Under the pieces are notes generated by a model. It made no database searches and had not been told where the DNA came from. It saw only the letters and a list, made by a program, of their open reading frames with translations. This document shows positions 14,722 to 50,252 of a DNA stretch of 64,000 bases, one piece after another. Made by a program: the position numbers and the translations under genes. Source of the DNA: Bacteroidota bacterium. Its GTDB lineage: Bacteria; Bacteroidota; Ignavibacteria; UBA10030; SZUA-254. Position 1 is the stretch's first letter. The number at the start of each line of letters is the position of its first letter. The DNA is taken from positions 43,173-107,172 of the forward strand of contig DATDFQ010000024.1 in the NCBI GenBank assembly GCA_036522515.1, given 5' to 3'.

Positions 14722-17700
14722 GCATGAAGATGATCCTCAAACGCGCGCTCAGAATCGTCGCCTACGCCGCCGCGCTGACGACCGTCATGCTTCTGTTCGT
14801 CGCGGGAATGTCGCAGACGGATTTCTTCAGGGAGCGATTCAGGATCCTTCTCGTCTCCGCCCTCTCCAGCAAGCTGAACGGCTCGGTGCGCCTCGGAACT
14901 CTCGGCGGGAATTTCATCACCAGCTTTACGCTCGATTCGGTCGAGGTCTACTACCGGGACAAGTTGTTCGTCAAGACCGCGAAGGTCACCGTCCAGTACG
15001 ATCCGCTGACGCTCCTGCAGAAGAAGCTGACCTTCAAATACTTCATCGTCGAGCAGCCGCGGATTCACTTCATCCGATCGGCGAAGGGCGACTGGAATTA
15101 CGAGAAGCTGGTAAAGCCGAGCACCGACACCTCCAAGGGCACGTTCGGCTGGAACATCTACCTGACCGATCTCGAATTGAAGAACGGCATCCTCACGCTC
15201 TTCGATTCGACCTCGGCGACCGCGATGAGAGGCGAGCTTCCGGACACGCTGAAGCACTTTGATTACGGCCGTTTCTCTCTCAAAGACATCAATGTCCAAC
15301 TTAAGGCTTCGATCCTGAAAGAGGATATCCAGACTCACCTGGTCCATTCGAGCTTCTACTCCGACCGGCCAGCATTCGAGCTGACGCATATCACCGGGGA
15401 TTTCGCTCTCTCCCACGCTGGAGTCTTTGCGAACAACGTCATCGCGCAAACGAGCCGCTCCTACATCGAGCTGGACGGCGGGGTCCACCTGCTCAACCTG
15501 TTCGAGCCCCAAAAGACCGACGACCTCCGCCGCGACTCGACAAAAGTGACGTTGAAGGCCCGGAACATCGATCTTTCCGAGTTGAGAACCCTCGTTCCCC
15601 CACTCGATTTCCTTGCGGGCTCAGCCTACGTCGATCTCGCTGTCGACGGAGTATTCGGGGACCTGACGATCCGGCGTCTGAACGTGAAGGCGTACGACAA
15701 CGCCATCAACGTCTCCGGGACGGTGCGAAACCTGCAAAAGGCGGAGCATCTCGATCTGGACGTCTTCGTCGGGGCTCCCTCGATCAACCCCTCCGACGCG
15801 TCCCGGTTGCTGCCCGGATTGAACCTGCCCCGTTACAGCAAAGTCGGCCGCTCCTCGCTCTTCGTTCAGTTCGTCGGAAAACCGCTTAATTTCCGGACCC
15901 GAACCATCCTCAGAGGGGGATTCGGCAATTGCGAGGTGGCGGGAACAATCAATCTTGAAAAAAAGGAGCCCTCCTACGGCCTGAAGTTCACCACAAGCCG
16001 GCTCGACATTGCCGCGCTCACAACGAACCCGGACCTGAAGGCGGTCCTCTCCTCGTCGGGGGGACTGAAGGGCGAAGGCATTTCGCTCAACGGGCTTAAT
16101 TCGACGCTCACCATTCGGATCGATTCCTCCAGAGTCAGGAACATCACTCTCGATTCCGCCCGGATGACCGTCTCTGCCCGCTCCCGCAAGCTGGAGGGCG
16201 CGGTCATGCTCGCCGCCCAGAAGATGAAGGCAACGATATCGGCTCATGCCGACCTCTCCGCGCCGGCGCACCCCGAGTTCGGCGGCGACGTGGCACTCCG
16301 GGGAATCAACCTCGCGCGGCTTCTCGACAATCCCCGGTATGAGAGCGATATCACGATGGAGGGAACCGTCTCCGGATCGGGCCGCACGATCGACGACCTC
16401 AACAGCGACACGAAATTGACCCTCTACCCTTCGATATTCCAGGGACACAATGTTTCGGAGCAGGAGATCCGGGTGTTTCTCGATCAGCACAATATCGAGA
16501 GCAAACGGCTGTCGCTCCAATCTTCGATCCTCGACCTTGACCTGAACGGAAAGTTCGATCTCGATCTGACCGAGGCGGTCCTCGTCCACCAGACGGCCAA
16601 CCTTCTCGAAACAATTCAGGAACACGCCCTCCCCGCGGAATCGATCAGGGTGAAACAGCCGGGGCTTGCCATTCCTCCGCACACCCCCGCGCAGCGGAGG
16701 ATGGATTTCGATTACACGCTCCGGGTCAAAGACCTCGAGCCCGTCGCCACGCTCATCGAGGGAAAGCGGTTCGACGGGCGGGGAACCCTGACCGGCTCCC
16801 TCCACGGCACCGACGAACAACTGTCGTTTTCCTGCAACGGCTCAGTCGACGAGTTCTTCCTCGGTTCCTACGAGCAGGGCTTCCTCCTCAACCGGACCAC
16901 CGTCGCGCTCAAGCTCGATTCCCTGGCCGACACCCGGACGTTCGATCAGCTCTCCGCGGGGTTGAAACTGGGCGTCGGAAACGCCCTGGTGAACGGGATG
17001 ACCATCGACAGCTTCTCCCTCCGCCTTGAGTACCACAATTACAAGGGGACTATCGCGATCAACGGGTTCGTCGACTCCCTCTACTCCATCGTGATGGCGG
17101 GGCAAACGGCGGTTCAACCCCACACGTACGCGTTCGACTTCGACAGCCTGACGTTCAAGTCGGGCGAGTACCGCTGGAAGAACGACCAGGACGTCCAGTT
17201 CCGCCTGAATTCCGACGGGACCCGGGTCATGCACGCCCTGATGGTGAGGAACGGGGAGCAGTTTTCCCTGACGGGCGTCCTTCATCACAACGGGGAGTTC
17301 GATTTCGACGCGCTCCTGAACAACTATGACGTCGCTTCGCTCGGCTTCCTGACGCGCAACCCCGTCCTCCTGCGCCCGGACCAGGCGTTCCACGGCCACA
17401 CGAGCGCGAAGCTCCACCTCGAGGGATCGACTTCGCACCCGGTCATCACCTTCACCGCCACGAGCGACAGCATTTTCTACAGGCAGACCCGGATCGGATC
17501 GATCGATGCCGGCGTCCGGTACCGCGACTCGATCGCGACGATCGACTTCGTGGTCAAGAAATCGCAGAAGGATTCGGTGCCGAGCCTCAGCGTGAAGGGA
17601 ACCCTCCCCATCAACCTCGCGTTCGGAGGGGTGAAAGAGCGGTTCCCGGACGAGCCGCAGAACATTCAGGTCGTCTCCCAGGGGTTCGATTTGAGCGTGC

Positions 17701-19235
17701 TCGATCCGCTCCACAGCGAGTTTCAGAACGTCCATGGGACGTTGCACGCCGACATCTCGGTCGCGGGCACCCCCCGGGATCCCGAGTACTCGGGATCGAT
17801 CACGCTCAAGGACGTCGATTTTACGTTCGCGCCGAACAATGTCCCGTACGCGCTCGCCGCCGATCTGGAAGCGACACGGAACAAGATCGTGGTGAAGAAC
17901 CTTGCGGTACGGAGTCTCCAGCGGGCCGTCGCTCCCGAGGACATGCAGGTGACCGGATCGCTGAGCATCAAGAACTACCAGATCGACTCGCTCGACCTGA
18001 CCGCAAACGGGCAGATCCTGCTGATGAGCGACGCCACGAAAAAGACCCGCGCGGCAATTTACGGCACGCTCCCGACCGCGACCGGTCCGGAAGGCCTCCA
18101 TCTCGTCGGGACCATCAGCCATCCTTATCTGAGCGGTAATCTCTACCTCCAGGGCGCAAATCTGACCTCACCGCCGACCTACGAAGCGGAAGGATCGAGC
18201 TCCCAGCTCTCCCTCAACTACGTCGTCGTCGACGACACCTCCAAGCCGGTCGCGCAGACCACCCGGCCCTCGAAGTTCTATGCCGGGAATGAGATCAAGC
18301 CGATCGCCCGGCCGGTCGACGACCATGTCGTGAAGACGACGTTCCTGGACCGCCTCCGGTACGATCTCAGCATCGAGACGCGCGGGAACAACTCGATCAA
18401 GATGATCTTTACCCCGAGCACGAACGAAGAACTCTACGCCGAGCTCGAGGGGAGGGTCAGCCTTGTCAATAACCGGGGATACATGAGCCTCACCGGCGAG
18501 ATCACCGTCTCTCCCAATTCCTACTACAATTTCTTCAAGCGGTTCGACGCGTCGGGAAAACTGAAGTTTGTGGGACAGTGGGACAATCCGGAACTTGAGA
18601 TCGAGGCCAACTATGTGGGATACCGGGCCGATCCGGCCCACGATTCGCTGCTGCAGAAGGTCATCGTCCAGCTCAACATCACCGGCACCCGGAACGAGCC
18701 GAAGCTCGCCATGTCGATGAAAGTTCAGCTCCAGCCCGGCGAGGAGCCGGTCGACTGGTCCTCGGAGGCGCGCGGAGGCGACGTGCAGTCCGATGCGATC
18801 TCCTTCATCCTGACCGGAAGGTTCCGCGACGACCTCTCCTCGAGGGAACGGGGCGACATTGCGACGAGCGTGGGAGCCACCGCTGGATCGGGGTTCACCA
18901 CGGGCTTGCTTTCCGGAGCCCTCTCGGATTTCCTTCGCGAGGAATTCCCGTTCATCAGGAGCGCGGAGGTGAACTACCAGGGCGGGAACGTCGGCCAGGG
19001 CGCGAACGTCCGTCTCAGCGGCGAGGCGTTCAAGGGGTACTGGCAGGTCGGCGGCAAGATTCTTAACGACATCGGGAACGCGAACGTCAGCTACTCGATG
19101 AGCCTCGGAGACGTGTTGAAAGCGTCTTCAATCCACAATCTCTTCCTGGAAATACAGCGGCGGGTCGAGGGAGACCTCTCGGAGGAGCGAAAACTAACGA
19201 ACGAAGCCCGCCTGTTCTATCGATTCTCTTTCTAA
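14718..19235 (+). CDS. tamB: translocation and assembly module protein TamB (AsmA-like, DUF490 C-terminus)
   Basis: 1505 aa. N-terminal signal-anchor, long beta-rich body, C-terminal ...LTNEARLFYRFSF typical of TamB. The antisense ORFs 15621..16820, 16842..18122 and 18168..18641 are high-GC artefacts. Confidence 0.8.
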   Translation: MSMKMILKRALRIVAYAAALTTVMLLFVAGMSQTDFFRERFRILLVSALSSKLNGSVRLGTLGGNFITSFTLDSVEVYYRDKLFVKTAKVTVQYDPLTLLQKKLTFKYFIVEQPRIHFIRSAKGDWNYEKLVKPSTDTSKGTFGWNIYLTDLELKNGILTLFDSTSATAMRGELPDTLKHFDYGRFSLKDINVQLKASILKEDIQTHLVHSSFYSDRPAFELTHITGDFALSHAGVFANNVIAQTSRSYIELDGGVHLLNLFEPQKTDDLRRDSTKVTLKARNIDLSELRTLVPPLDFLAGSAYVDLAVDGVFGDLTIRRLNVKAYDNAINVSGTVRNLQKAEHLDLDVFVGAPSINPSDASRLLPGLNLPRYSKVGRSSLFVQFVGKPLNFRTRTILRGGFGNCEVAGTINLEKKEPSYGLKFTTSRLDIAALTTNPDLKAVLSSSGGLKGEGISLNGLNSTLTIRIDSSRVRNITLDSARMTVSARSRKLEGAVMLAAQKMKATISAHADLSAPAHPEFGGDVALRGINLARLLDNPRYESDITMEGTVSGSGRTIDDLNSDTKLTLYPSIFQGHNVSEQEIRVFLDQHNIESKRLSLQSSILDLDLNGKFDLDLTEAVLVHQTANLLETIQEHALPAESIRVKQPGLAIPPHTPAQRRMDFDYTLRVKDLEPVATLIEGKRFDGRGTLTGSLHGTDEQLSFSCNGSVDEFFLGSYEQGFLLNRTTVALKLDSLADTRTFDQLSAGLKLGVGNALVNGMTIDSFSLRLEYHNYKGTIAINGFVDSLYSIVMAGQTAVQPHTYAFDFDSLTFKSGEYRWKNDQDVQFRLNSDGTRVMHALMVRNGEQFSLTGVLHHNGEFDFDALLNNYDVASLGFLTRNPVLLRPDQAFHGHTSAKLHLEGSTSHPVITFTATSDSIFYRQTRIGSIDAGVRYRDSIATIDFVVKKSQKDSVPSLSVKGTLPINLAFGGVKERFPDEPQNIQVVSQGFDLSVLDPLHSEFQNVHGTLHADISVAGTPRDPEYSGSITLKDVDFTFAPNNVPYALAADLEATRNKIVVKNLAVRSLQRAVAPEDMQVTGSLSIKNYQIDSLDLTANGQILLMSDATKKTRAAIYGTLPTATGPEGLHLVGTISHPYLSGNLYLQGANLTSPPTYEAEGSSSQLSLNYVVVDDTSKPVAQTTRPSKFYAGNEIKPIARPVDDHVVKTTFLDRLRYDLSIETRGNNSIKMIFTPSTNEELYAELEGRVSLVNNRGYMSLTGEITVSPNSYYNFFKRFDASGKLKFVGQWDNPELEIEANYVGYRADPAHDSLLQKVIVQLNITGTRNEPKLAMSMKVQLQPGEEPVDWSSEARGGDVQSDAISFILTGRFRDDLSSRERGDIATSVGATAGSGFTTGLLSGALSDFLREEFPFIRSAEVNYQGGNVGQGANVRLSGEAFKGYWQVGGKILNDIGNANVSYSMSLGDVLKASSIHNLFLEIQRRVEGDLSEERKLTNEARLFYRFSF

Positions 19236-22171: not shown

Positions 22172-22549
22172 TCAGGATGACATTGTCGACTTCCACACCC
22201 CGTACGCAATCCAGATCCAGCCTCCGAGAAAGCAGAGACCTCCGAACGGGGTGATGATTCCCAGCGACCTGCTTCCCGTCACGCTCATCGCGTAGAGGCT
22301 CCCCGAGAAAAGAATAATCCCCGCCACGAAGAGCCATCCCGCCGCGTCCATATTCGATCCCGGGAACTGCGAACCCACCCATGCGACGACGAAGAGGGCG
22401 AGCGAGTGATAGAGGTGGTAGCGGACTCCCACTTCGAAGACGGCGAGCATATCGGCGGGAAGCTTCTCCTTGAGCGCGTGCGCGGCAAACGCCCCGAGCG
22501 CCACCGCGAGGAAGGCGGACAACGACCCGAGGATGAGGAAGGTTTTCAT
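22172..22549 (-). CDS. DUF423 (YgdD-like) small membrane protein
   Basis: MKTFLILGSLSAFLAVALGAFAAH...HLYHSLALFVVAWV... four TM helices. ATG at 22549 with GGAGG upstream. 4-nt overlap with the queF stop. Confidence 0.7.
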   Translation of the reverse strand: MKTFLILGSLSAFLAVALGAFAAHALKEKLPADMLAVFEVGVRYHLYHSLALFVVAWVGSQFPGSNMDAAGWLFVAGIILFSGSLYAMSVTGSRSLGIITPFGGLCFLGGWIWIAYGVWKSTMSS

Positions 22550-22995
22550 CCTCCCTTCCTCCCCGTTTCCGCGGTCGCGATCGAATGGACCCCTCCGCGG
22601 ATCCTGTAATCGGCGACGACCTCCATCCACTTCGGTTTGCAGCAAGCCGCAAGATCGTTCAGGATCCTGTTGACAACGTGCTCCTGGAAGATGCCGACAT
22701 TGCGGTACGAGAGGAGGTAATATTTCACCGAACGCAGCTCCAGCAGGCGCGTGCCCGGGATGTAATTGATCCGGACTGTCGCGAAGTCGGGCAGGCCGGA
22801 ATAAGGGCAGACCGCCGTAAATTCGTCGGTGTCGATGTTGACGACGATCCTTCTCCCGGGGTATTCGTAGGGAAACGTCTCGAGAACCGCGACATCGATC
22901 GCGGCGACATCCTGGACGTCGTACCGCCGGTCGAGTCCGCGAAACGGACCGCGATTTGCGGGCGGGGTTTTCCGGGGGCGGCTATTTTTCGGCAT
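22546..22995 (-). CDS. queF: NADPH-dependent 7-cyano-7-deazaguanine reductase (QueF, type I)
   Basis: ...TAVCPYSGLPDFATVRINYIPG..LLELRSVKYYLLSYRN.GIFQEHVVNRI matches the QueF tunnel-fold motifs (catalytic Cys, E/S-K-S-L-K-like segment). Confidence 0.8.
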   Translation of the reverse strand: MPKNSRPRKTPPANRGPFRGLDRRYDVQDVAAIDVAVLETFPYEYPGRRIVVNIDTDEFTAVCPYSGLPDFATVRINYIPGTRLLELRSVKYYLLSYRNVGIFQEHVVNRILNDLAACCKPKWMEVVADYRIRGGVHSIATAETGRKGG

Positions 22996-23049
22996 CCTTT
23001 TTTATCACTCTGTTCGGTTATGAATGCGACCAATATAACAGAATTCCGG

Positions 23050-24423
23050 TCAAAATCCGACGATGTCGCTCAATCCGGTGCGAAGCGCGTACCACGCGAA
23101 GGCGAGAAACGCCTCGTCTTTTTTCCTCTCGTACTTTACCCTGCCGATCTTCATAGAGCCCGATTCATCCGGCAGATTGGTCGTCCGCAGCTTTATGTTA
23201 TTCCCGATGAATGAGACGATCTTATTTCCTACGCCTCCTTCGTCCCCCGTGCGGTCCGAGATTGCGGCGATTTTCAGGTCCTTATAGATTGCGGTGACCG
23301 TGCCTCTCGCCCTTCCCGCCTCCGAATCGATATCGAACGTCGAGCCATGGAGGATTCCGGTCTTGAGCCTCTTCTGTTCGGAGATTTCGATGAACGGATT
23401 GAAATCGCTCAGCTCCATTTTGCCGAGGCGGCCCGAGTAATGGAACGAGAACCCCGGGGATGCGATGGGCATCGAAATACTCACATCGAGCCGGCCTGCG
23501 TTCATCAGCCGTCCGTCGGCCTGAAGGGTCGCGGTGTCCTGGCCTCCCTTTCCTTCGATCCATGCCAGTGTAAGTTGAGTGTCCTCGAGGGTCAAGATGG
23601 CGGGCTTCGAACCGGGTTGATACCGCTCCCCGTACTTCAAATGCCCGTTCGCGAGGTGGAGACTGTCGACTTGAAACGTCTTCCGTATCGAAGAGAGAAT
23701 CTCATTTGGCGGGCTTGCGATTTCAGTCTCGGCGGGCCTGTCCCTGTTGATGAGGACGTCGAGGGAGCCCGATTCGATGTACGCCGTCCGCGTGCACCGG
23801 ACTTCTCCTTCCAGAAGCCGGAGGCAGGCCGAGCCCATGACGTTGCACCTCGGGAGGAGAAGGCGGTAACGGGTTCTCCTCGTCTTGCTCGATGCGAAGA
23901 ACTCCTCGTCGCTTCCGAGCGGACGATACTCGAGCTTTTCGAGGACCACCACCGAGTCCGGGACCGACACGCGAATGCGGTCGCAACTCAGCTTGTATCC
24001 CGACATCGGAAAGATCATCAGAATTCGTTCCACCCCCGCCGTGGAGCTCACGAGGTTGTCCGGAGCGACCCCCCCGCCCCAGAGGAGCTGTCTCCTGGTG
24101 ATCCCGGCCACAAAAAACCTGCCGACGCTGCAGGAAATGGTGGAATCACGCTTCCCGATCAGGACGGAATCGCATTCGAGGCGATTGTTCAGAAGGGAGT
24201 AATGCAGCTTGCCGATCGCCAGCGTGTAATCCGGATAGGCCTCGTCAAAAGCACGGATGATCCGGCGGGCGACAAAACCGTCGAGATAGGCGTCCGGCAC
24301 GAAAAGAAAAATCGACATGCAGACGAGTGCGACCCCCGCGACGGCGATACCCGCGTACCAAGCGACCTTCCGGGCAAACGGTGTTTTCGGGAATGATTTC
24401 AGCGGCATACTGATCCCGTGCAC
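23050..24423 (-). CDS. hypothetical membrane-anchored protein (single N-terminal TM, large periplasmic beta-rich domain; possibly AsmA-like or DUF748-like)
   Basis: 457 aa. TM VAWYAGIAVAGVALVCMSIFLFV. No motif I can assign with confidence. GTG or downstream ATG (MPLKSF) start. Confidence 0.5.
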   Translation of the reverse strand: MHGISMPLKSFPKTPFARKVAWYAGIAVAGVALVCMSIFLFVPDAYLDGFVARRIIRAFDEAYPDYTLAIGKLHYSLLNNRLECDSVLIGKRDSTISCSVGRFFVAGITRRQLLWGGGVAPDNLVSSTAGVERILMIFPMSGYKLSCDRIRVSVPDSVVVLEKLEYRPLGSDEEFFASSKTRRTRYRLLLPRCNVMGSACLRLLEGEVRCTRTAYIESGSLDVLINRDRPAETEIASPPNEILSSIRKTFQVDSLHLANGHLKYGERYQPGSKPAILTLEDTQLTLAWIEGKGGQDTATLQADGRLMNAGRLDVSISMPIASPGFSFHYSGRLGKMELSDFNPFIEISEQKRLKTGILHGSTFDIDSEAGRARGTVTAIYKDLKIAAISDRTGDEGGVGNKIVSFIGNNIKLRTTNLPDESGSMKIGRVKYERKKDEAFLAFAWYALRTGLSDIVGF

Positions 24424-24456
24424 GGGGGAACCGCCGCGCTCGTCATGGCCCGGCCT

Positions 24457-24879
24457 CTATGGGGTCTTTTTCTCCCCCTCGTTCTTGTCGTCATCGTCCT
24501 TCAAGCCCTCGCCGACTCTATGGGCCACCTTTTTTGTTTTTTTCCAACCCTTCTTGGCAGCTTTCTCCGTCCACTTCGCGCCTTTCTTGACGCCTTTTTT
24601 CCCTTCATGGTACGCCGACTTCGCCCCCTCCTTCGTTTTCTCCCAGCCCTTCTCAGTTCCCTCCACGCCCTTGTTGGTTACTTCCTTTGTCTTCTCCCAA
24701 CCCTCCTTTGTTCCCTCCTTCGTTTTCTGCCACCCTTCCTTTGTCCCCTCCTTTCCCTTCTCCAATGCTCTGGCGGCTTTTGCCACGGCCGTGTCCTGCT
24801 TCGATTGGCTCATGCCGAATGCCGGAGTCAGATAGAGGAAGACTGCCAGCCCGATGAGATAGCTTGATTGCTTGATCAT
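24457..24879 (-). CDS. small secreted Lys/Glu-rich protein made of ~7 tandem 11-residue KTKEG-type repeats (alpha-synuclein / LEA / apolipoprotein-like amphipathic 11-mers)
   Basis: Signal peptide MIKQSSYLIGLAVFLYLTPAFG with AGGAGA SD 7 nt upstream. Then TKEGWQKTKEG|TKEGWEKTKEV|TNKGVEGTEKG|WEKTKEGAKSA|YHEGKKGVKKG|AKWTEKAAKKG|WKKTKK. The plus-strand ORFs 24317..24835 and 24418..24867 are artefacts of the repeat. Confidence 0.55.
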   Translation of the reverse strand: MIKQSSYLIGLAVFLYLTPAFGMSQSKQDTAVAKAARALEKGKEGTKEGWQKTKEGTKEGWEKTKEVTNKGVEGTEKGWEKTKEGAKSAYHEGKKGVKKGAKWTEKAAKKGWKKTKKVAHRVGEGLKDDDDKNEGEKKTP

Positions 24880-24941
24880 GTGCGCTTCTCCTTTCTGTCG
24901 GTAATGGTGATTGAGTTGAAACAGAGATTGCATTGCGTACC

Positions 24942-25757
24942 TCAATTGATAATTATTCTCAGCGTGAGCGGATACGGGGAAGACAACCCGATGCGGCTCT
25001 CCTGCTGTTCATGAAGGTCGACCACCCATGTCGCGACGAAAAATCCGACCGCCGCGCCGAGGAGATTGTCGGACACCCAGTGCTGGTCCTGATAGATCCT
25101 GGAGACCGGAGTGAGGACGGCGGGCAGATAGACCAGAATCTTCAGCCAGAGCGGATGAACGTTCCTTGAAATGACGGTCGAGAGCGTGAATGCGACTGTG
25201 GCGTGCCCGCTTGAAAGCGAATGATAGTCGTCGTCAGAAATCGAGAAGGGATGATAGCTCCCGGCGCCCTCGCCGGTGTACGGTCTCGCCCTTCCGAACG
25301 CAAACTTCATCGTGTAGGTGATTGCCGCGGCATAGAGGGAGGCCTGGCCGATCTCATAGCCGATTTTTCGCGTCCCGATGTCGTCTTCGACCAGAGAATG
25401 GATTGCAAAACCCGTGAAGAGCGCGATCGGCATGTAGACCTCGCCCCAGACTCTGCCGGCCTCGATCGGAGCGCTGTTGTAATATCTCTGATCTCTCAGA
25501 ACCCCGTCGCGGATGGGTTGGTCCGCCGCCATTGCGAGAATCGTCGCGGCGCCCGTCAATCCGAATTTGAGCCAGTCCGTTCCCTTCCAGCGAAGAGGCT
25601 GCGTGAAGAAGATCTGCGATTCGGCGCCGAACTGGGGAAAGTCGTACTTGTTCTGAGCATGGAGGGCCGATTGACAGGCAACCACGATGGAGACCGTCAA
25701 CCAGAACTTGCGCCGGAAGGATCGGGAGCGGGGCTTCGAGGACGAGGCGACAATCAT
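24942..25757 (-). CDS. PAP2-family (type 2 phosphatidic acid phosphatase-like) membrane phosphatase
   Basis: KFAFGRARPY / LSSGHAT / VSRIYQDQHWVSD correspond to the three PAP2 signature motifs (KxxxxxxRP, SGH, SRxxxxxHxxxD). Start overlaps the upstream stop (ATGA). Confidence 0.8.
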   Translation of the reverse strand: MIVASSSKPRSRSFRRKFWLTVSIVVACQSALHAQNKYDFPQFGAESQIFFTQPLRWKGTDWLKFGLTGAATILAMAADQPIRDGVLRDQRYYNSAPIEAGRVWGEVYMPIALFTGFAIHSLVEDDIGTRKIGYEIGQASLYAAAITYTMKFAFGRARPYTGEGAGSYHPFSISDDDYHSLSSGHATVAFTLSTVISRNVHPLWLKILVYLPAVLTPVSRIYQDQHWVSDNLLGAAVGFFVATWVVDLHEQQESRIGLSSPYPLTLRIIIN

Positions 25758-27265
25758 TCCGTGATTCCGAAGTTCTCCAGGTTGAGCATCACGTACACCT
25801 TCTCCTCGGAGTGGACCGAAAAGAATCCGGGAAACTCGTCGAAGTCGGCTGTTCGATGGTACAGGAGGTATTCAAATCCCGCGCTGATATTTCTGTGAAG
25901 CAGGACCGTGAGTCTCGGCTTGAAGATGCCGATCAGATTATTTCCGGACGCTCCGACGTAGGTATGGATCCAATATAAGAAATAGTCCGTTGTGAGGCTT
26001 CCCCACCCCAGGTCGAGAATATTCTCGACCTTCGCCTGCATGCCGCCTCCGTACACATACCGTCTGTCGCCGACATTGACATAGGGGGAGCTGACCGCTC
26101 CCAACGGTATGACCGCAAGATGGAGGGCCGATTCCAGCCGGGAGTTCATCATGAACGGCAACTGCGACATGATTCCTCCCCCGAAACCGAACGAGCTCAC
26201 CTGGTAGGTGGTATTATTCCAGTAGTCAAAATGCTGGAACCCCCCGGCGATGATATTGAGATGCCCCGCCCGTGTGTTCGATCCGAACAGGAGTCCATAT
26301 CCGATGATATTGTCGATCAGCGTCGGACCCGGCCCGAAGTCCATGTCGAATCGAAGCTTGAAGAAATCAAACGGCTTCCTCGACCTGAGTTCAAACGGAT
26401 TTCCGTACACGAATTGGGCGGTCGTGGTCAGGTTCGTGATTCCCGTTCCGAAGATGGACCCCACATCGATGTTATGCGCCCCGAGGGAAAAGGTGACGTT
26501 CAGGGGCTCTTTCTGGTAGACCTCTTTCGAGCTCAACCGGAACAATCTTCCCTCGGTCAGCCTGCTGAATCCCCTTCTCGGGTTGATCACCGTCCCGAGC
26601 AACTCGCGAAAGAACCTCGCCGCCCCCGTCGCCCGGTCGTCCAGAATATTCGAACTCAACCGGTAGAGCACTTCTCCCCCGAACGCGCCGCTCACCGTCG
26701 TGTTGATCAGGTCATTATACGACGGCTGCGTATTCTCTCCGACCATCTCCCACATCAGACTGCTCCCGAATGCGAAAGGGACAGATTCGTAGAAACCATA
26801 CCCGTTCGCCCGGCCGCCGGTAAACGCCATCGCCCCGCCGTACGGATGGAAAAAGTGGTTCATCTCGAATCCGTCCGAATCCCATTCGAACCCCTCCTGG
26901 AAGTTCTTTCTCCAGGATTGAAACCCGACCCTCGAGTAATCGGCATTTGAGATATACCTGTCCACCGCCCATGTGAAGACGTTGCCTCCGACCACCCCGA
27001 GAACAGGAATCCACACCGGGGATCGCGGGTTGGCCGCCGGATCGTCGTCGAGGAGGTCTCCATAGATATTTGAGACCGCGGGGTCCCTGTACGATACGTT
27101 CGGAGGCTTCGTGCTGACTCCCTCCGTATGCTGGGGAAGAGTGTCCGGCCGCGCGGCCGAAGGCGCGGTCACGCCGGAGCCCGCGCCACGGTTCTGCGCT
27201 CTCCCCGGGTGAACGGCGAGGAACACGACGAGAGAGACGATCGGATAAGTGGAATGCCTCGTAAT
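25754..27265 (-). CDS. DUF3943-like outer-membrane protein; start codon not resolved
   Basis: About 500 aa, beta-rich with an aromatic C-terminus, signal-like IVSLVVFLAVHPGRAQ. There is no in-frame ATG between the signal peptide and the upstream small gene; the ORF-track start at 27388 would overlap the convergent-frame gene 27268..27423. A non-canonical start or sequencing/frameshift issue is possible. Confidence 0.5.
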   Translation of the reverse strand: MTRHSTYPIVSLVVFLAVHPGRAQNRGAGSGVTAPSAARPDTLPQHTEGVSTKPPNVSYRDPAVSNIYGDLLDDDPAANPRSPVWIPVLGVVGGNVFTWAVDRYISNADYSRVGFQSWRKNFQEGFEWDSDGFEMNHFFHPYGGAMAFTGGRANGYGFYESVPFAFGSSLMWEMVGENTQPSYNDLINTTVSGAFGGEVLYRLSSNILDDRATGAARFFRELLGTVINPRRGFSRLTEGRLFRLSSKEVYQKEPLNVTFSLGAHNIDVGSIFGTGITNLTTTAQFVYGNPFELRSRKPFDFFKLRFDMDFGPGPTLIDNIIGYGLLFGSNTRAGHLNIIAGGFQHFDYWNNTTYQVSSFGFGGGIMSQLPFMMNSRLESALHLAVIPLGAVSSPYVNVGDRRYVYGGGMQAKVENILDLGWGSLTTDYFLYWIHTYVGASGNNLIGIFKPRLTVLLHRNISAGFEYLLYHRTADFDEFPGFFSVHSEEKVYVMLNLENFGITE

Positions 27266-27267
27266 TT

Positions 27268-27423
27268 TTATTTCCCGATCGGGTTGCGTCCCTGAATCAC
27301 TCTGACCAGGACGATCACGATGGCAATGACAAGAAGGATGTGGATGAAACCGCCCATCGTGTAGGAGCTGATGAACCCGAGGAGCCACAATACGATCAAA
27401 ACGAAGGCGATTGTGTATAACAT
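27268..27423 (-). CDS. lmo0937/DUF1328-family small membrane protein (about 52 aa)
   Basis: MLYTIAFVLIVLWLLGFISSYTMGGFIHILLVIAIVIVLVRVIQGRNP. Two TM helices with a GG..H..LLVIAI motif typical of this family. Start chosen at MLYT. Confidence 0.55.
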   Translation of the reverse strand: MLYTIAFVLIVLWLLGFISSYTMGGFIHILLVIAIVIVLVRVIQGRNPIGK

Positions 27424-28137: not shown

Positions 28138-28304
28138 GTGGGTGGGAGCCGCCACGGCTCCCACTATTATTCTCGATTTGCCGCGCCGGTGGCCGATTTA
28201 CCCGTTTTTGAGGCATGACGCCCGATACCGCCTTATTGACATTAGGAGGTCATTTCTCTATATTTTGCCTGTTTCTTATTAGTCCACGACGAGAGGGTGA
28301 TTTG

Positions 28305-30731
28305 GTGCCGGACCAGGGGGAAACGCAATTCAGGGAAGAGCTTCAGCGCAAAGCTGAAGAGACGAAGCGTCGCACCTTCGAGGAGGAATCGCGCAAAATC
28401 GCAAGGGAGGCGGACGAGCGCGCCCGCGAACACACCAAGAACCGTCTGGCAGAAGACTCCCAGGCCTACGCCAAGAAGCTTCGCGAGGCGCAGGAAGAGC
28501 GCCAGCGGCTGGAGGCATCGCTCAAGACTCAAGAAGAGGCAATTCTCGGCAGGATCCGGAAAGAGGCTTCGAAGAAGATCGAGGCCCGCCAGCGGCAGGA
28601 ACAGGAACTCCGCCGCAAGGAGCAGGAAGAGAAGAGGGCGGTAGAAGAGGCCGAACGTAAACGGAGGGAAGAAGAGCTCCGTGCCGCCGCGGAGAAGGAC
28701 CGGGCGCGCCGCGAGGAAGAGCGGGCGAAAATCCTCGAAGCCGAGAAAAAGCGGAGCGAGGAAGAACGCGCGCGCAAAGAAAACGAGATTAAGCGCAAAG
28801 AGGAGGCGCGCCGTCAGAAGGAAGAAGAAGCCCGGGCCCAGGGCCGCGAGCGCGAGGAACGGATCCAGTCGCTGATCGCCCGCGCCGAGGTATTCTTCGC
28901 AGACGGAGACCTCGAGCACGCTTCCGTTGAGGTGGCGAAGGCCCTCGTCAACGACCCCGCGAACGCAAAGGCCCTCGAGATCGAGCGCCAGATCAAAGAG
29001 GCGCAGGGAAAGAAAACCGGAGGAAAAGAGGGAGCCGAAAAACCAGCAAAGAAAGAACGCCCCCTCCACCTCGCAGGCTCCCCCATCACGGCGAAGAAAA
29101 AGGCTTACGCGTCCGCCATGATGGTCGTGGCCGTCATTGCCATCCTCGTCGTGAGCATACTGGTCATCCTCGAGCTCCGGAGAAGCAGTCCGACCAAGAC
29201 AATTTCGATCGCCGTGCTGCCCTTGACCAGCCCGTCGGATGTCCCCGAAGACAGGGCGCTCGGATCTTCGCTCGGCGAGGTGACGGCTGCAGGGCTCCGG
29301 GGCTACAAATCGTTCATCGTCATGGATTTCGCCTCCGCCTATCAGCTTGCGCGGAAGTCCCCGGAACCGGATCAGGCCGCCTTCCGTCTCGGTTTCCGCT
29401 ACGCGCTCCGGGGGTCGATCTTCCGGACTGCCACCGGATACGCCATCAACGTCAAGATGATCGATTCTCTCCGCAACCCTGTCTGGGAACAACATTTTGA
29501 GACACCCGCGGAAAGCCTGGCAGTCGTCGGAGAACAGATTCCGATGCAACTCGCCTCCGCGATGGGCTCGGAGCTCGCCGAGAGGCCCTCGGGGTTCGCC
29601 TCACGAAGAGGCCGGCCGAACAATGTGGCGTATGAGTTGTACATGCGGGGGTTGGAACTGACCCGCCGCGTCACCCCGGAAAGCACGCAGAATGCCCTCG
29701 TCCTGTTCCAGGAAGCGGCCCGGCAGGATGAAAACTTTCCTGAAGCGCTCGCCTCCGCCGGCGCCGTCCTTGCGACCCGCGTCGAACGGAACTGGGAGGG
29801 GACCGAGCCCGCGCTCTCCCAGGCCATGGACTTTGCGACGCGCGCCGTCTCGCTCGACCCGTCGATCAGCGAGGGGTACCGCGTTCTGGGCTCCATCCGT
29901 TCGCAGCGGAATGATAATAACGCCGCCCTCGCGGTGATTGATACCGCGCTCCGGTACTCGCCGAGCTCCGGAACGAACCTCTTAACCCGCGCCAAGGTCC
30001 TTTTGAAAGTGGGCAAGTACAAGGACGCCCTCGCGGTGCTCGGGAAAGCCTACGCGCTCGATCCGTTCGACCCCGACCTCCTGCATGTCTATGCGGTCGC
30101 GCACCGCCTCGCAGGCACCACGCGCGAGGGGAGGAGTTATTCGGTGAGCGCAGCCCAATGGTCCGGGGATTCAGCCAGCTATCTCGTGGGGCCTTTTGCG
30201 GACGCGGTGGTGCTCGACCCCGACCTTTCCCTCACGCAGAGCGACCGCGTGGCGGCCGCATGCCGGGAGAAGTTGCGGGCGGAACCGGGTGATTACTCGA
30301 CGATGTACCGTTTGGCCCGGCTGCTCCAGGTGACTGGCAAGCCGGTCGATGCCGGCGCCCTCCTGGCAAAAGGCGAAACGATTCTCCGTTCCGCGGTCCA
30401 GAAGGACCCCAAGGACGTGCGGGCCATGACGTACCTCGCCCTGACGCTCACCCGCCAGGGGAAATTTACCGAGGCGGCCGATCTCGCGCTCAAGGCGGAT
30501 AAGGCGGGAAAGGACAATCCCGAGGTGAAGTACCGGATCGCGCAGATGTACTCGCTTCAGATGTACTCGCAGAAAGAGAAAAAGATCGATGAGAAAGCGA
30601 AGGAGAACGCACTCCGCGCCCTGAGCGACGCCGTCAGGCTGAGTTACCGCCTCGACGAGCTTGCGAGCGCGGATTTTTACAACCTTTCGGACCAGCCGGA
30701 ATTTCGGACAGCCATCGAACAGGCGATGTAG
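28305..30731 (+). CDS. membrane protein: N-terminal cytoplasmic E/R/K-rich single-alpha-helix (about 250 aa), one TM, periplasmic TolB-N-like domain, C-terminal TPR repeats
   Basis: EEERARKENEIKRKEEARRQKEEEARAQGREREER... charged helix. TM MMVVAVIAILVVSILVILEL. ISIAVLPLTSPSDVPEDRALGSSLGEVTAAGL...FRLGFRYALRGSIF... (TolB_N-like). TPR-like C-terminus. Likely GTG start at 28305 (GAGAGGG SD 7 nt upstream); the ORF track starts at ATG 28215. Confidence 0.6.
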   Translation: MPDQGETQFREELQRKAEETKRRTFEEESRKIAREADERAREHTKNRLAEDSQAYAKKLREAQEERQRLEASLKTQEEAILGRIRKEASKKIEARQRQEQELRRKEQEEKRAVEEAERKRREEELRAAAEKDRARREEERAKILEAEKKRSEEERARKENEIKRKEEARRQKEEEARAQGREREERIQSLIARAEVFFADGDLEHASVEVAKALVNDPANAKALEIERQIKEAQGKKTGGKEGAEKPAKKERPLHLAGSPITAKKKAYASAMMVVAVIAILVVSILVILELRRSSPTKTISIAVLPLTSPSDVPEDRALGSSLGEVTAAGLRGYKSFIVMDFASAYQLARKSPEPDQAAFRLGFRYALRGSIFRTATGYAINVKMIDSLRNPVWEQHFETPAESLAVVGEQIPMQLASAMGSELAERPSGFASRRGRPNNVAYELYMRGLELTRRVTPESTQNALVLFQEAARQDENFPEALASAGAVLATRVERNWEGTEPALSQAMDFATRAVSLDPSISEGYRVLGSIRSQRNDNNAALAVIDTALRYSPSSGTNLLTRAKVLLKVGKYKDALAVLGKAYALDPFDPDLLHVYAVAHRLAGTTREGRSYSVSAAQWSGDSASYLVGPFADAVVLDPDLSLTQSDRVAAACREKLRAEPGDYSTMYRLARLLQVTGKPVDAGALLAKGETILRSAVQKDPKDVRAMTYLALTLTRQGKFTEAADLALKADKAGKDNPEVKYRIAQMYSLQMYSQKEKKIDEKAKENALRALSDAVRLSYRLDELASADFYNLSDQPEFRTAIEQAM

Positions 30732-50145: not shown

Positions 50146-50153
50146 CCCATTGT

Positions 50154-50240
50154 CGTCCGTTAGGGGTGTCCCGCAAAAAAGGGACTGAGAACATACCCTG
50201 GAAACCTGATCTGGATCATGCCAGCGTAGGGAAACGGAAG
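50154..50240 (+). promoter_or_regulatory. TPP (thiamine pyrophosphate, THI-box) riboswitch
   Basis: gtccgttaGGGGTGtCCcgcaaaaaagggaCTGAGAacatACCCtgGAAACCTGATCTGGATCATGCCAGCGtAGGGAaacggaa contains all conserved THI-element blocks (GGGGUGCC, CUGAGA, ACCC, AACCUGAUCUGGAUAAUGCCAGCG, AGGGA) with P1 tccgtt/aacgga. Confidence 0.85.
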
Positions 50241-50252
50241 GGAAATTGCTCA

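Follow-up and report, generated by a model that had tools for sequence, protein, structure and literature searches.

Why a small exported protein with 11-residue repeats resembling those of alpha-synuclein should be encoded among envelope and lipid genes of a Bacteroidota bacterium is the question raised by this locus. The stretch of DNA analysed (the window; 64,000 nucleotides of contig DATDFQ010000024.1, assembly GCA_036522515.1) contains the gene block at positions 22172–27423. An initial annotation had described seven co-directional minus-strand genes joined by ATGA-type overlaps. All seven are confirmed, their ORFs having identical coordinates in independent JGI/ENA gene calls. The overlaps, of four nucleotides, occur only between the starts and ends of DUF3943/PAP2 and QueF/DUF423; elsewhere, gaps of 41–62 nucleotides separate the genes.

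27268..27423, minus strand: DUF5670/lmo0937-family membrane protein of 51 residues, first in the block (Pfam 59.7 bits, NCBIfam NF033488 64.8 bits)
25754..27226 as called, minus strand: DUF3943 (YfiM-Griddle Lipocone) protein (Pfam 112 bits)
24942..25757, minus strand: PAP2-family lipid phosphate phosphatase (Pfam PAP2 66.9 bits)
24888..24893, minus strand: Shine-Dalgarno-like AAGGAG, 8 nucleotides upstream of the ATG at 24879 (direct sequence reading)
24457..24879, minus strand: exported 11-residue-repeat protein of 140 residues, the subject of this study (ORF and independent gene calls, orthologues, dN/dS, family profile)
24802..24879, minus strand: predicted Sec signal peptide, residues 1–26 (inferred from sequence)
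24505..24792, minus strand: repeat region, residues about 30–125 (lag-11 periodicity, hydrophobic moment, AF2 helices)
23050..24408, minus strand: 452-residue protein, N-terminal transmembrane helix and predicted beta-groove (no Pfam match; structure model)
22546..22995, minus strand: QueF (TIGR03139, 135 bits)
22172..22549, minus strand: DUF423 gene (DUF423, 104.6 bits)

The start codon of the DUF3943 gene is uncertain, its ORF being open up to 27388. A DUF5670 gene is also present in a related island, L089.

The repeat gene and its product

The repeat gene is a real gene under purifying selection. Orthologues P0001 and P0002 are 54–56% identical to the window protein, and the dN/dS of 0.11–0.27 resembles that of the flanking genes. 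The AAGGAG lies inside the 62-nucleotide gap that follows the PAP2 stop codon. The signal peptide proposed earlier is also predicted here; P0001, P0002 and a 239-residue protein of locus L087 conserve its leader core, YLIGLAVFLYL, and an SQS/SQA site, and cleavage is likely to occur after the conserved S-Q-S.

The protein had been considered to consist almost entirely of 11-residue repeats. This holds for about 96 of the 140 residues, which form about eight units of the xKEGWxKTKEG type, but a single insertion of 7 residues breaks the period, and repeats near the C-terminus are degenerate. At lag 11, the self-identity reaches 0.31 (z = 6.1 versus shuffles); enrichment is also seen at lags 18 and 29 and for sub-periods of 4 and of 7. 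KTKEG occurs four times and KTKEV once, and a 33-nucleotide period was found in the DNA at 24683–24763 (TRF). The C-terminal half is lysine-rich, and the protein has a net charge of +12 and the composition of a hydrophilin (GRAVY −1.67, 13.6% Gly).

If helical at 11 residues per three turns, the repeats would form one continuous amphipathic helix, with a narrow apolar stripe, in which a single Trp from each repeat is joined by Thr, Gly and Ala, and with Lys on both flanks. The amphipathicity expected from the initial annotation is borne out: the 11/3 helical wheel has a synuclein/class-A layout, with Thr in the middle of a small-residue apolar face, the KTK lysines at the interface and Glu opposite, and the hydrophobic moment of the 96-residue region has a sharp maximum of 0.37 near 100 degrees per residue (z 5.7–7.3), no other sampled angle giving more than 0.14. 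By the same measure, this periodicity is stronger than that of alpha-synuclein residues 1–95. The apolar face, however, is very weak, mean hydrophobicity being lower than in alpha-synuclein, so that membrane affinity could be low. The AF2 model is all-helical (helices 28–42, 46–92 and 97–129) and of low confidence (pLDDT 64, pTM 0.26); a Foldseek search with it returned no structural match.

A wider bacterial family

A family profile search retrieved 664 cluster representatives across many bacterial phyla, including Klebsiella, Kluyvera and Acetobacter. The family is large and uncurated and comprises exported or lipid-anchored proteins: a hydrophobic segment is present at the N-terminus of 118 of 128 members, and a lipobox in ten. 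In the consensus repeat, S-x-K-A-W-D-K-T-K-E-G, Trp recurs every 11 residues; at position −3 from TK[ED] it is present in 83% of 402 motifs (Tyr in 6%; background 3.1%). The moment z is above 3 in 94% of 103 members, with a median best angle of 99 degrees. Some members, such as P0035 and P0057, are long multi-array proteins. The family is for the most part acidic, with a median net charge of −5, and this weighs against an anionic-lipid mechanism common to all members; the window protein is divergent and, for this family, unusually basic. Most of the family's genes are monocistronic and lie in contexts unrelated to one another.

Conservation of the gene neighbourhood

In one Bacteroidota lineage, the repeat gene is placed inside an envelope-lipid cluster encoding a DUF3943 Lipocone protein, PAP2 and an AsmA-like beta-groove protein. 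Conservation of the DUF3943-PAP2-repeat neighbourhood, one of the checks suggested at the outset, is complete among the loci with close repeat orthologues (three of three: the window, L003 and L005) and does not extend to the wider family, where PAP2, DUF3943 or a gene of the type encoding the 452-residue protein (the 450-residue type) is nearby in none of 160 loci. PAP2 is the most constant neighbour, immediately upstream; in L003 and L005, the orthologues that directly precede the repeat gene are 61–70% identical to it, and its catalytic motifs are intact in the translation (KFAFGRARP, SSGH, SRIYQDQHWVSD). Immediately downstream, after a 48-nucleotide gap, comes the 452-residue protein gene in the window and L003, and an AI-2E transporter gene instead in L005.

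Orthologues of the 450-residue type occur in L087, L089, L091 and L092 without a repeat gene. These sister clusters combine the 450-residue type with DUF3943 and, in some cases, PAP2; where the repeat gene would be expected, they encode either a stress-type protein with DUF883_C or a beta-rich protein that is unrelated. Neither queF nor DUF423 adjoins the cluster in L003, L005, L087, L089, L091 or L092; both are incidental, co-directional but outside the conserved cluster. The proposal that all seven genes form one module is thus not upheld, and the repeat gene is an accessory of the cluster. The related islands are rich in small stress-type genes (DUF883_C, CsbD, DUF3185, DUF5670, DUF4398-OmpA).

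The lipid character of the neighbours, on the other hand, is stronger than was claimed. To call DUF3943 an outer-membrane protein is too simple: a preprint classes it among the Lipocone enzyme domains, as YfiM-Griddle, in most cases joined to an outer-membrane barrel, and already notes its linkage to PAP2 (bioRxiv 10.1101/2025.01.14.632903). The window cluster shares with the operons described there DUF3943 plus PAP2 with a 4-nucleotide overlap, of the type assigned to outer-membrane lipid head-group modification; the preprint's passages on these operons describe neither an 11-residue-repeat protein nor a short AsmA-like partner. The 452-residue protein is modelled as a membrane-anchored open beta-groove, AsmA-like or DUF748-like, with the Vps13 N-terminus as best match and Atg2 as another.

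Possible functions of the repeat protein

We infer that the repeat protein binds membrane surfaces in the periplasm or acts there as a hydrophilin, and that one lineage recruited it to the cluster. Our preference, a tentative one, is for membrane-surface binding combined with a convergent likeness to synuclein. The protein would be disordered in the periplasm and fold onto an anionic membrane surface, which could belong to the inner membrane (outer face) or to the outer membrane (inner face). At the lipid interface, Trp and Lys would hold it in place, comparable to class-A apolipoprotein, group-3 LEA and alpha-synuclein helices. Once bound, it may buffer packing defects or stabilize the bilayer as neighbouring enzymes and transporters alter lipid composition, probably under envelope stress. 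In favour of this reading are the conserved leader, the amphipathic periodicity, the conserved Trp, the all-helical AF2 model, the hydrophilin-like, basic composition, the alpha-synuclein and apolipophorin III matches, and the syntenic, lipid-related neighbours. Against it are the low AF2 confidence, the weak apolar face, the mostly acidic wider family and the absence of lipid genes around its 160 loci, the sister clusters that do without the repeat gene, and the lack of a salt phenotype on knockout of Sll1863, namesake of the closest curated family (PMC8670252).

Somewhat less probably, the protein would serve in the periplasm as a general hydrophilin, a "molecular shield". Abundant and disordered, it would guard the proteins of the envelope and help to retain water during osmotic, cold or desiccation stress, and would have no specific lipid role; adjacency to PAP2 would then reflect shared stress regulation. 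Its composition, the small stress-type genes of the related islands and the scattered, mostly monocistronic family genes all favour such a role. The closest curated family, and the single bacterial one touched by many relatives, is the sll1863 stress-response family (NCBIfam NF052504), matched by 40 of 63 relatives, all below its cut-off of 35 bits (best 33.4 bits) and in the repeat-like C-terminal part of the model; orthologues of the window protein reach 15–22 bits and the window protein itself has no match. Sll1863 is among the Synechocystis proteins most strongly induced by salt, and its knockout has no salt phenotype (PMC8670252). A Gram-negative envelope precedent is BilRI, a disordered bacterial outer-membrane lipoprotein of eleven 11-mers (PMC8096337); BilRI has no aromatic residues, whereas Trp is the hallmark of the window family. 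The strictly conserved Trp per 11 residues and the coherent amphipathic phase favour a defined face for binding over non-specific shielding, and the PAP2-repeat adjacency, kept in three loci at 54–70% protein identity, also speaks against this role.

By analogy with the small proteins YnbE and YdbL, which accompany YdbH in E. coli, the repeat protein might instead be an accessory partner of the AsmA-like 452-residue protein, assembling or regulating an inter-membrane lipid bridge. Small periplasmic partners are documented for AsmA-like proteins (PMC11126948), and both the close spacing of the two genes in the window and L003 and the Vps13-like groove would suit such a pairing. We consider it improbable: the downstream gene differs in L005, four loci have the 450-residue type without the repeat gene, the two never adjoin in the 160 wider-family loci, and YnbE acts by beta-strand augmentation, whereas a helical structure is predicted for the repeat protein.

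A structural or adhesive role in the envelope is likewise doubtful. The protein would then self-associate into a right-handed hendecad coiled coil, or its Trp ladder would bind glycan chains such as peptidoglycan, LPS core or exopolysaccharide. S/T, A/G, W and T occupy the hendecad core at a, d, e and h, which is a right-handed coiled-coil pattern; aromatic ladders are typical sugar-binding faces; and the family includes long multi-array relatives. However, AF2 packs the helices without confidence, and a stable coiled coil is made less likely by the presence of two Gly in each repeat of the window protein. As for glycans, no carbohydrate-active genes are adjacent, and LPS binding by BilRI maps outside its repeats (PMC8096337).

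Relationship to alpha-synuclein and other 11-residue-repeat proteins

The resemblance to synuclein, LEA proteins and apolipoproteins pointed out initially holds for the KTK register, the helix layout and the top matches among PDB sequences, where the family profile finds alpha-synuclein first, with marginal significance (E 0.0094), and then apolipophorin III (E 0.045). Since all these similarities stay below family thresholds for the window protein, they are best read as convergence. With group-3 LEA (LEA_4) proteins, it shares a hydrophilic, Gly/Lys/Glu-rich 11-mer array, predicted to be helical and probably disordered in solution, and the first seven positions of the repeat, A-W-D-K-T-K-E, fit the LEA-3 pattern (apolar-apolar-acidic-x-apolar-K-E); LEA_4 is neither matched by the window protein nor among the top families of 63 relatives. 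With exchangeable apolipoproteins (apoA-I/A-IV/E, apolipophorin III), it shares 11-residue units and the class-A layout, but it is much shorter, with a weak apolar face and no proline-punctuated 22-mers; two of 63 relatives have weak Apolipoprotein matches.

The N-terminal repeats of alpha-synuclein (Pfam PF01387) have in common with the window protein the 11-residue period, the KTKEG core and the 11/3 Thr/Lys/Glu layout. The window protein differs in being bacterial and, by prediction, extracytoplasmic, with a signal peptide, a far more polar apolar face, no hydrophobic NAC-like region, and one conserved Trp per repeat, a residue that alpha-synuclein lacks altogether. We read the likeness as convergence on a common motif, without homology. 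True homology with vertebrate alpha-synuclein, whether by common descent or by horizontal transfer, is very improbable: the top PDB match, the BLASTP alignment (41% identity over 81 residues, pairwise E 4e-5), the hhalign probability of 59% and one relative, P0275, above the Pfam Synuclein threshold (30.4 versus 23.3 bits) would favour it, but every match is confined to short repeats of the KTKEG type (in P0275, to 32 residues), Pfam Synuclein is not matched by the window protein at E <= 1, and the repeat family spans many bacterial phyla while synuclein is not known outside vertebrates.

The suggestion that no bacterial synuclein-like repeat protein had been described was too strong, BilRI (PMC8096337) and Wolbachia WalE1 (WD0830), a bacterial "alpha-synuclein domain" protein (PMC4958246), both having been published. 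WalE1 likewise has a repeat region matching synuclein, but it is a type IV secretion effector of about 500 residues that bundles host actin, whereas the window protein has 140 residues, is predicted to be Sec-exported and comes from a free-living bacterium; four relatives match the WalE1 NCBIfam model weakly, far under its 90-bit cut-off.

The gene cluster and the repeat gene

Seven consecutive genes on the minus strand span 22172-27423, with the same coordinates in independent JGI and ENA gene calls of identical contigs:

27268-27423 (-), DUF5670/lmo0937 protein
25754-27226 (-), DUF3943 protein
24942-25757 (-), PAP2 phosphatase
24457-24879 (-), 140-aa exported 11-residue-repeat protein (the repeat protein)
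23050-24408 (-), 452-aa protein
22546-22995 (-), QueF (type II preQ1 synthase)
22172-22549 (-), DUF423 protein

Matches to Pfam and NCBIfam models bear out all the family names that the initial annotation had given (DUF5670/lmo0937, DUF3943, PAP2, QueF and DUF423); the 140-aa and 452-aa proteins have no above-threshold match among these models. The ATGA-type overlaps described for the cluster are present at two junctions only, DUF3943/PAP2 and QueF/DUF423 (4 nt), the remaining junctions being gaps of 41-62 nt. At 8 nt upstream of its ATG, the 140-aa gene carries an AAGGAG sequence of its own. A seven-gene operon was rejected, since queF and DUF423 are not kept as neighbours in related loci; these two genes are bystanders. 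Counts from a sigma-70 promoter and terminator scan, the coverage of which excludes Bacteroidota promoters, are close to shuffle expectation, and an Rfam search revealed no preQ1 riboswitch near queF and nothing within the cluster.

The repeat ORF is conserved, a point the initial annotation had left to be checked. Two orthologues, 54-56% identical, are located on other metagenomic contigs, and pairwise dN/dS is 0.11-0.27 for the repeat gene, 0.07-0.18 for the PAP2 gene and 0.25 for the 452-aa gene, values that are approximate, with dS near saturation. A wrong-strand or non-coding reading was rejected, because orthologues, a leader and a dN/dS well below 1 all speak for the minus-strand frame. 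Opposite the repeat gene, the plus-strand ORFs 24317-24835 and 24418-24867 (172 and 149 aa) encode Ser/Pro/Phe/Leu-rich products, in a region with a GC skew of -0.24 and an AT skew of -0.40; these long ORFs (24317-24867) are mirror by-products of the purine-rich repeat and not genes.

An exported, amphipathic 11-residue repeat

After the leader (MIKQSSYLIGLAVFLYLTPAFGMSQS), the mature repeat protein contains 26% Lys, 18% Asp plus Glu and 13.6% Gly, with a GRAVY of -1.67, a composition that falls within the hydrophilin definition of Garay-Arroyo (Gly > 6%, hydrophilicity index > 1). It carries a net charge of +12, and its C-terminal half is basic. The N-terminal signal-like segment and the 11-residue KTKEG periodicity noted in the initial annotation are confirmed: self-identity is maximal at lag 11 (z = 6.1), sub-periods of 4 and 7 also appear, and the peaks at lags 18 and 29 are due to one 7-residue insertion. 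In the gene, TRF detects a 33-nt period. KTKEG occurs four times and KTKEV once, making this an imperfect 11-residue repeat of the KTKEGV-core type; successive Trp residues are spaced by 11, 18, 24 and 9.

The amphipathic phase is coherent, as the initial annotation had anticipated. Over all 96 residues of the repeat region, the hydrophobic moment has a sharp maximum near 100 degrees per residue (z 5.7-7.3); for alpha-synuclein 1-95, the same scoring yields z 4.8-5.0 at 98.2 degrees. When placed on an 11/3 wheel, the unit TKEGWEKTKEG presents a face formed by G11-G4-T8-T1-W5, flanked by K9, K2 and K7, with E6, E10 and E3 opposite, which is the class-A layout of interfacial lysines and acidic residues in the middle of the polar face. 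In both the repeat protein and synuclein, the Thr of KTK is central in the apolar face; the mean Fauchere-Pliska value of this face is -0.09 in the repeat protein versus +0.24 in synuclein, i.e., much less hydrophobic. AlphaFold2, run with an alignment of 63 sequences, predicts helices at residues 28-42, 46-92 and 97-129 with low confidence (pLDDT 64, pTM 0.26). Foldseek returned no fold match for this model in the PDB, which is expected, given that it is a low-confidence extended helix. Taken together, the low-confidence model and the missing fold match fit a protein that may be disordered until it binds.

Relation to known families

The repeat protein has no match to the Pfam Synuclein model (PF01387; gathering threshold 23.3 bits) at E <= 1. 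Its close orthologue P0002 scores 12.9 bits and 7 of the 63 relatives match weakly; the distant relative P0275 is the sole one above the gathering threshold, across 32 residues only. Searched against all PDB sequences, the family profile has alpha-synuclein as its top match (E 0.0094), followed by apolipophorin III (E 0.045), and hhalign against alpha-synuclein gives a probability of 59%. These synuclein matches are marginal and at the level of the motif, and from the sequences the likeness is read as probable convergence, because the repeat Trp, present once per unit, is absent from alpha-synuclein, the repeat protein lacks an NAC-like central hydrophobic segment after its leader, it carries a signal-like segment whereas synuclein is cytosolic without one, and the family is broadly bacterial. 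Sporadic Pfam 'Synuclein' annotations in bacteria would be explained in the same way, as convergent matches to the repeat. The likeness to synuclein, LEA proteins and apolipoproteins put forward in the initial annotation thus holds as a physical analogy, which is quantitatively real but appears convergent, with sub-threshold matches for the window protein.

Group-3 LEA proteins follow the 11-mer pattern apolar-apolar-E-x-apolar-K-E-K-apolar-x-E. The repeat unit agrees with it at positions 1-7 (A/G-W-D/E-K-T-K-E) and disagrees at positions 8 and 11. LEA_4 (PF02987) does not match the window protein at E <= 1, nor any of the 63 relatives at E <= 0.01. The apolipoprotein models (PF01442, PF07464) do not match the window protein either; among the relatives, two match at E ~0.006 and there is one ApoLp-III match at 3e-4. 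The nearest curated bacterial model is sll1863_fam (NF052504), with matches in 40 of the 63 relatives, all under the 35-bit cut-off (best relative 33.4 bits); the close orthologues P0001 and P0002 score 15.0 and 21.7 bits, and the window protein has no match at E <= 1. Sll1863 is among the most strongly salt-induced Synechocystis proteins, and its knockout has no salt phenotype (PMC8670252).

By its composition, the repeat protein is an exported bacterial amphipathic 11-mer hydrophilin, a kind of protein with published precedents. WalE1 of Wolbachia has been reported as a bacterial alpha-synuclein-domain protein, with a Providencia hypothetical protein as its closest non-Wolbachia homologue (PMC4958246). 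BilRI, a disordered lipoprotein of the outer membrane, contains eleven 11-mers and is classed as LEA_4 (PMC8096337).

A wider tryptophan-repeat family

Searching the family profile against 1.84 billion cluster representatives (50% clustering) yielded 664 matches at E <= 1e-3, 55 of them at E <= 1e-10. This defines a large family, uncurated in the libraries searched, with a conserved Trp every 11 residues. Members are mostly 90-240 aa long; an N-terminal hydrophobic segment is present in 118 of 128 short members and a lipobox in 10 of 128. The consensus unit is S-x-[KED]-A-W-[DE]-[KA]-T-K-E-[GV]. By far the commonest W-W spacing is 11 (341 counts), followed by 22 (50 counts), and in 83% of 402 motifs the third residue ahead of TK[ED] is Trp (background 3.1%). 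A significant moment at 98 degrees is present in 94% of 103 members. Net charge ranges from -35 to +16 (median -5), the window protein lying toward the basic end. With a significant profile match, the Trp repeat and an N-terminal signal-like segment, the window protein belongs to this exported 'W-x-K-T-K-E-G' family.

Members occur in Klebsiella pneumoniae, Kluyvera, Raoultella, Citrobacter, Serratia rubidaea, many Acetobacter, Opitutales, Tannerellaceae and Myxococcota. Source names from the cluster look-ups are almost all 'hypothetical protein' and none is informative. Neither a blastn search of E. coli genomes with the Klebsiella homologue nor a tblastn search of plasmids with the window protein gave a hit. 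PF28479 is precomputed on P0004 and several other members; literature searches for PF28479 and XAC1346 returned no matches. In the lipoprotein members P0004 and P0006, W-x-x-T-K-E repeats are fused to a Cys-containing module (..FKGDMTxEExxxFxxCVxxLQxxEGLTxxQAERGCWRMxEE..) that is present once or twice. P0035 (1263 aa), P0057 (3399 aa), P0073 and P0124 are very long and contain arrays of the Trp 11-residue repeat (as many as 10 matched stretches), so giant proteins also use it as a module.

Neighbouring proteins and conservation of the neighbourhood

The PAP2 protein scores 66.9 bits against the Pfam model (cut-off 27.2 bits), and the three motifs of the family (KxxxxxxRP, PSGH and SRxxxxxHxxxD) are all present in its translation, as KFAFGRARP, SSGH and SRIYQDQHWVSD. 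Its scores with substrate models of LpxE, SepP and PgpB type are far under their cut-offs. The DUF3943 protein scores 112.2 bits (cut-off 27 bits) and continues for about 270 residues after the domain. According to a preprint (bioRxiv 10.1101/2025.01.14.632903), DUF3943 corresponds to the 'YfiM-Griddle' family within the Lipocone superfamily, with a predicted role in outer-membrane lipid head-group modification; fusion or linkage to an outer-membrane barrel is nearly universal, fusion being near-obligate, and integral-membrane PAP2 phosphatases are reported from its operons. Given that report, the DUF3943-PAP2 pair is an arrangement described before.

The 452-aa protein has 243 homologues, two of which carry DUF748. 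Its model is confident (pLDDT 82, pTM 0.75), with a transmembrane helix at the N terminus and a beta-rich body after it, and its best PDB matches in Foldseek are a Vps13 N-terminal fragment (E 1.3e-6), LptD and Atg2. With moderate confidence, the model points to a short AsmA-like beta-groove protein. A 1503-aa TamB/DUF748/YhdP-like protein is encoded at 14724-19235 (+), about 4 kb away, beyond the downstream end of the cluster (22172); RNase R and a DedA/VTT-domain gene lie between the two AsmA-like genes.

Each of the three loci that have a close orthologue (the window with L001/L002, L003/L004 and L005/L006) keeps the order DUF3943-PAP2-repeat, and their PAP2 proteins are 61-70% identical. 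Downstream of the repeat gene, the window and L003 have the 450-aa gene (58% identity), and L005 an AI-2E transporter. Scans of metagenome and genome contigs for further close orthologues found distant family members only, so the synteny rests on three loci. Orthologues of the 450-aa gene on four other contigs (L087, L089, L091, L092) lie in similar islands without the repeat gene; these contain DUF3943 with or without PAP2, DUF883_C, CsbD, DUF3185, DUF5670, DUF4398-OmpA and a GerE-type response regulator, and in L087 and L089 a DUF883_C (ElaB-like) protein is directly upstream of the 450-aa gene. No hit to HMMs of the three neighbours was found within 6-8 kb of 160 wider-family loci, these HMMs being lineage-specific and liable to miss distant PAP2s.

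The linkage is real but narrow, and the repeat gene was inserted, as a lineage-specific accessory, into a variable envelope or stress island, because the order is kept in three loci, the sister islands lack the repeat gene and the wider-family loci lack the neighbours. For the envelope-lipid module suggested at the outset, the lipid context (PAP2, DUF3943 and the AsmA-like model) is genuine, but lineage-restricted.

Several details of the related islands may be added. After DUF3943, at L087:4672-5391 (also at L089:5180-5701), a 239-aa protein shares the leader and the first ~35 residues of the repeat protein (MLKTACYLIGLVFMASLIPGVGISQANIDTTGARV); its mature domain is beta-rich and unrelated to the repeat, and the sequences suggest that mature domains may be swapped behind a conserved export leader. 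L091:1-9137, from the same JGI sample (3300039426) as the window contig, carries a paralogous cluster without the repeat gene, in the order 185-aa protein, 445-aa AsmA-like protein, GerE-type response regulator, DUF3943, PAP2, PAP2; a common VI215_ prefix of the NCBI locus tags suggests that both clusters belong to the same MAG. At L089:8507-11315, the genes after a 441-aa AsmA-like gene encode a KaiC-like ATPase, KaiB and a GerE-type response regulator, which hints at stress or circadian-type regulatory control of the related islands.

Proposed function

The initial annotation is confirmed in its observation and in part of its interpretation: the physical analogy and the lipid context hold, the former as convergence and the latter within one lineage, but the seven-gene module does not. 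How phospholipids are moved and stabilised across the Gram-negative periplasm is an open question and, to our knowledge, AsmA-like bridge proteins are the sole factors recently implicated. As a soluble, exported protein predicted to form an amphipathic helix, encoded between a lipid phosphatase and a putative AsmA-like protein, the repeat protein offers a concrete candidate helper for this process.

We tentatively propose that the repeat protein is a periplasmic binder that folds on anionic membranes during lipid remodelling, probably under envelope stress. The proposal draws on the exported amphipathic repeat with an aromatic residue in each unit, the basic C-terminal half and the lipid-enzyme and lipid-transport neighbours. 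The protein would be disordered in the periplasm and would fold as an 11/3 helix on anionic membrane surfaces, with the Trp and flanking Lys residues anchoring it at the interface; there it may stabilise or sense packing defects while lipids are remodelled. The main rival, possible though on the unlikely side, is a general periplasmic hydrophilin without lipid specificity, to which the stress-type genes in the related islands, the sll1863 link and the mostly acidic character of the wider family, in unrelated contexts, all point. That the repeat protein acts as a partner of the neighbouring AsmA-like protein is doubtful, and a coiled-coil or a glycan binder is equally so; a true synuclein homologue is very improbable.

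A more far-reaching version of membrane binding, which we consider unlikely, is that the 'W-x-K-T-K-E-G' proteins are widespread, unrecognised bacterial periplasmic 'apolipoproteins' that stay disordered before folding on membranes or on lipids in transit, with the member in this Bacteroidota lineage directly partnering the Lipocone enzyme, PAP2 and a short AsmA-like bridge in outer-membrane lipid remodelling or traffic. If true, they would be a prokaryotic functional counterpart of the synuclein and apolipoprotein helices. Family members occur in tractable organisms (Klebsiella pneumoniae, Kluyvera, Raoultella, Serratia and Acetobacter), and the lipid-helper idea is therefore testable at once. 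The value of the system is that it pairs a large, tractable family, unstudied so far, with a specific and testable link to the handling of envelope lipids.

Other features of the window

The start of the DUF3943 gene is ambiguous. The called GTG at 27226 (-) falls within the hydrophobic core of an apparent signal peptide (..YPIVSLVVFLAVHPGRAQN), and the next upstream ATG, GTG or TTG in frame is the GTG at 27388 (-), from which the overlap with the DUF5670 gene would be 121 nt; translation may therefore begin at a non-standard codon. At 50152-50249 (+) there is a TPP riboswitch (Rfam RF00059, 74 bits). At 28215-30731 (+), an 838-aa ORF (called as 809 aa) contains an extremely E/R/K-rich segment of about 250 residues, with an AT skew of +0.56 at 28500-29000, followed by a transmembrane segment and TPR repeats.
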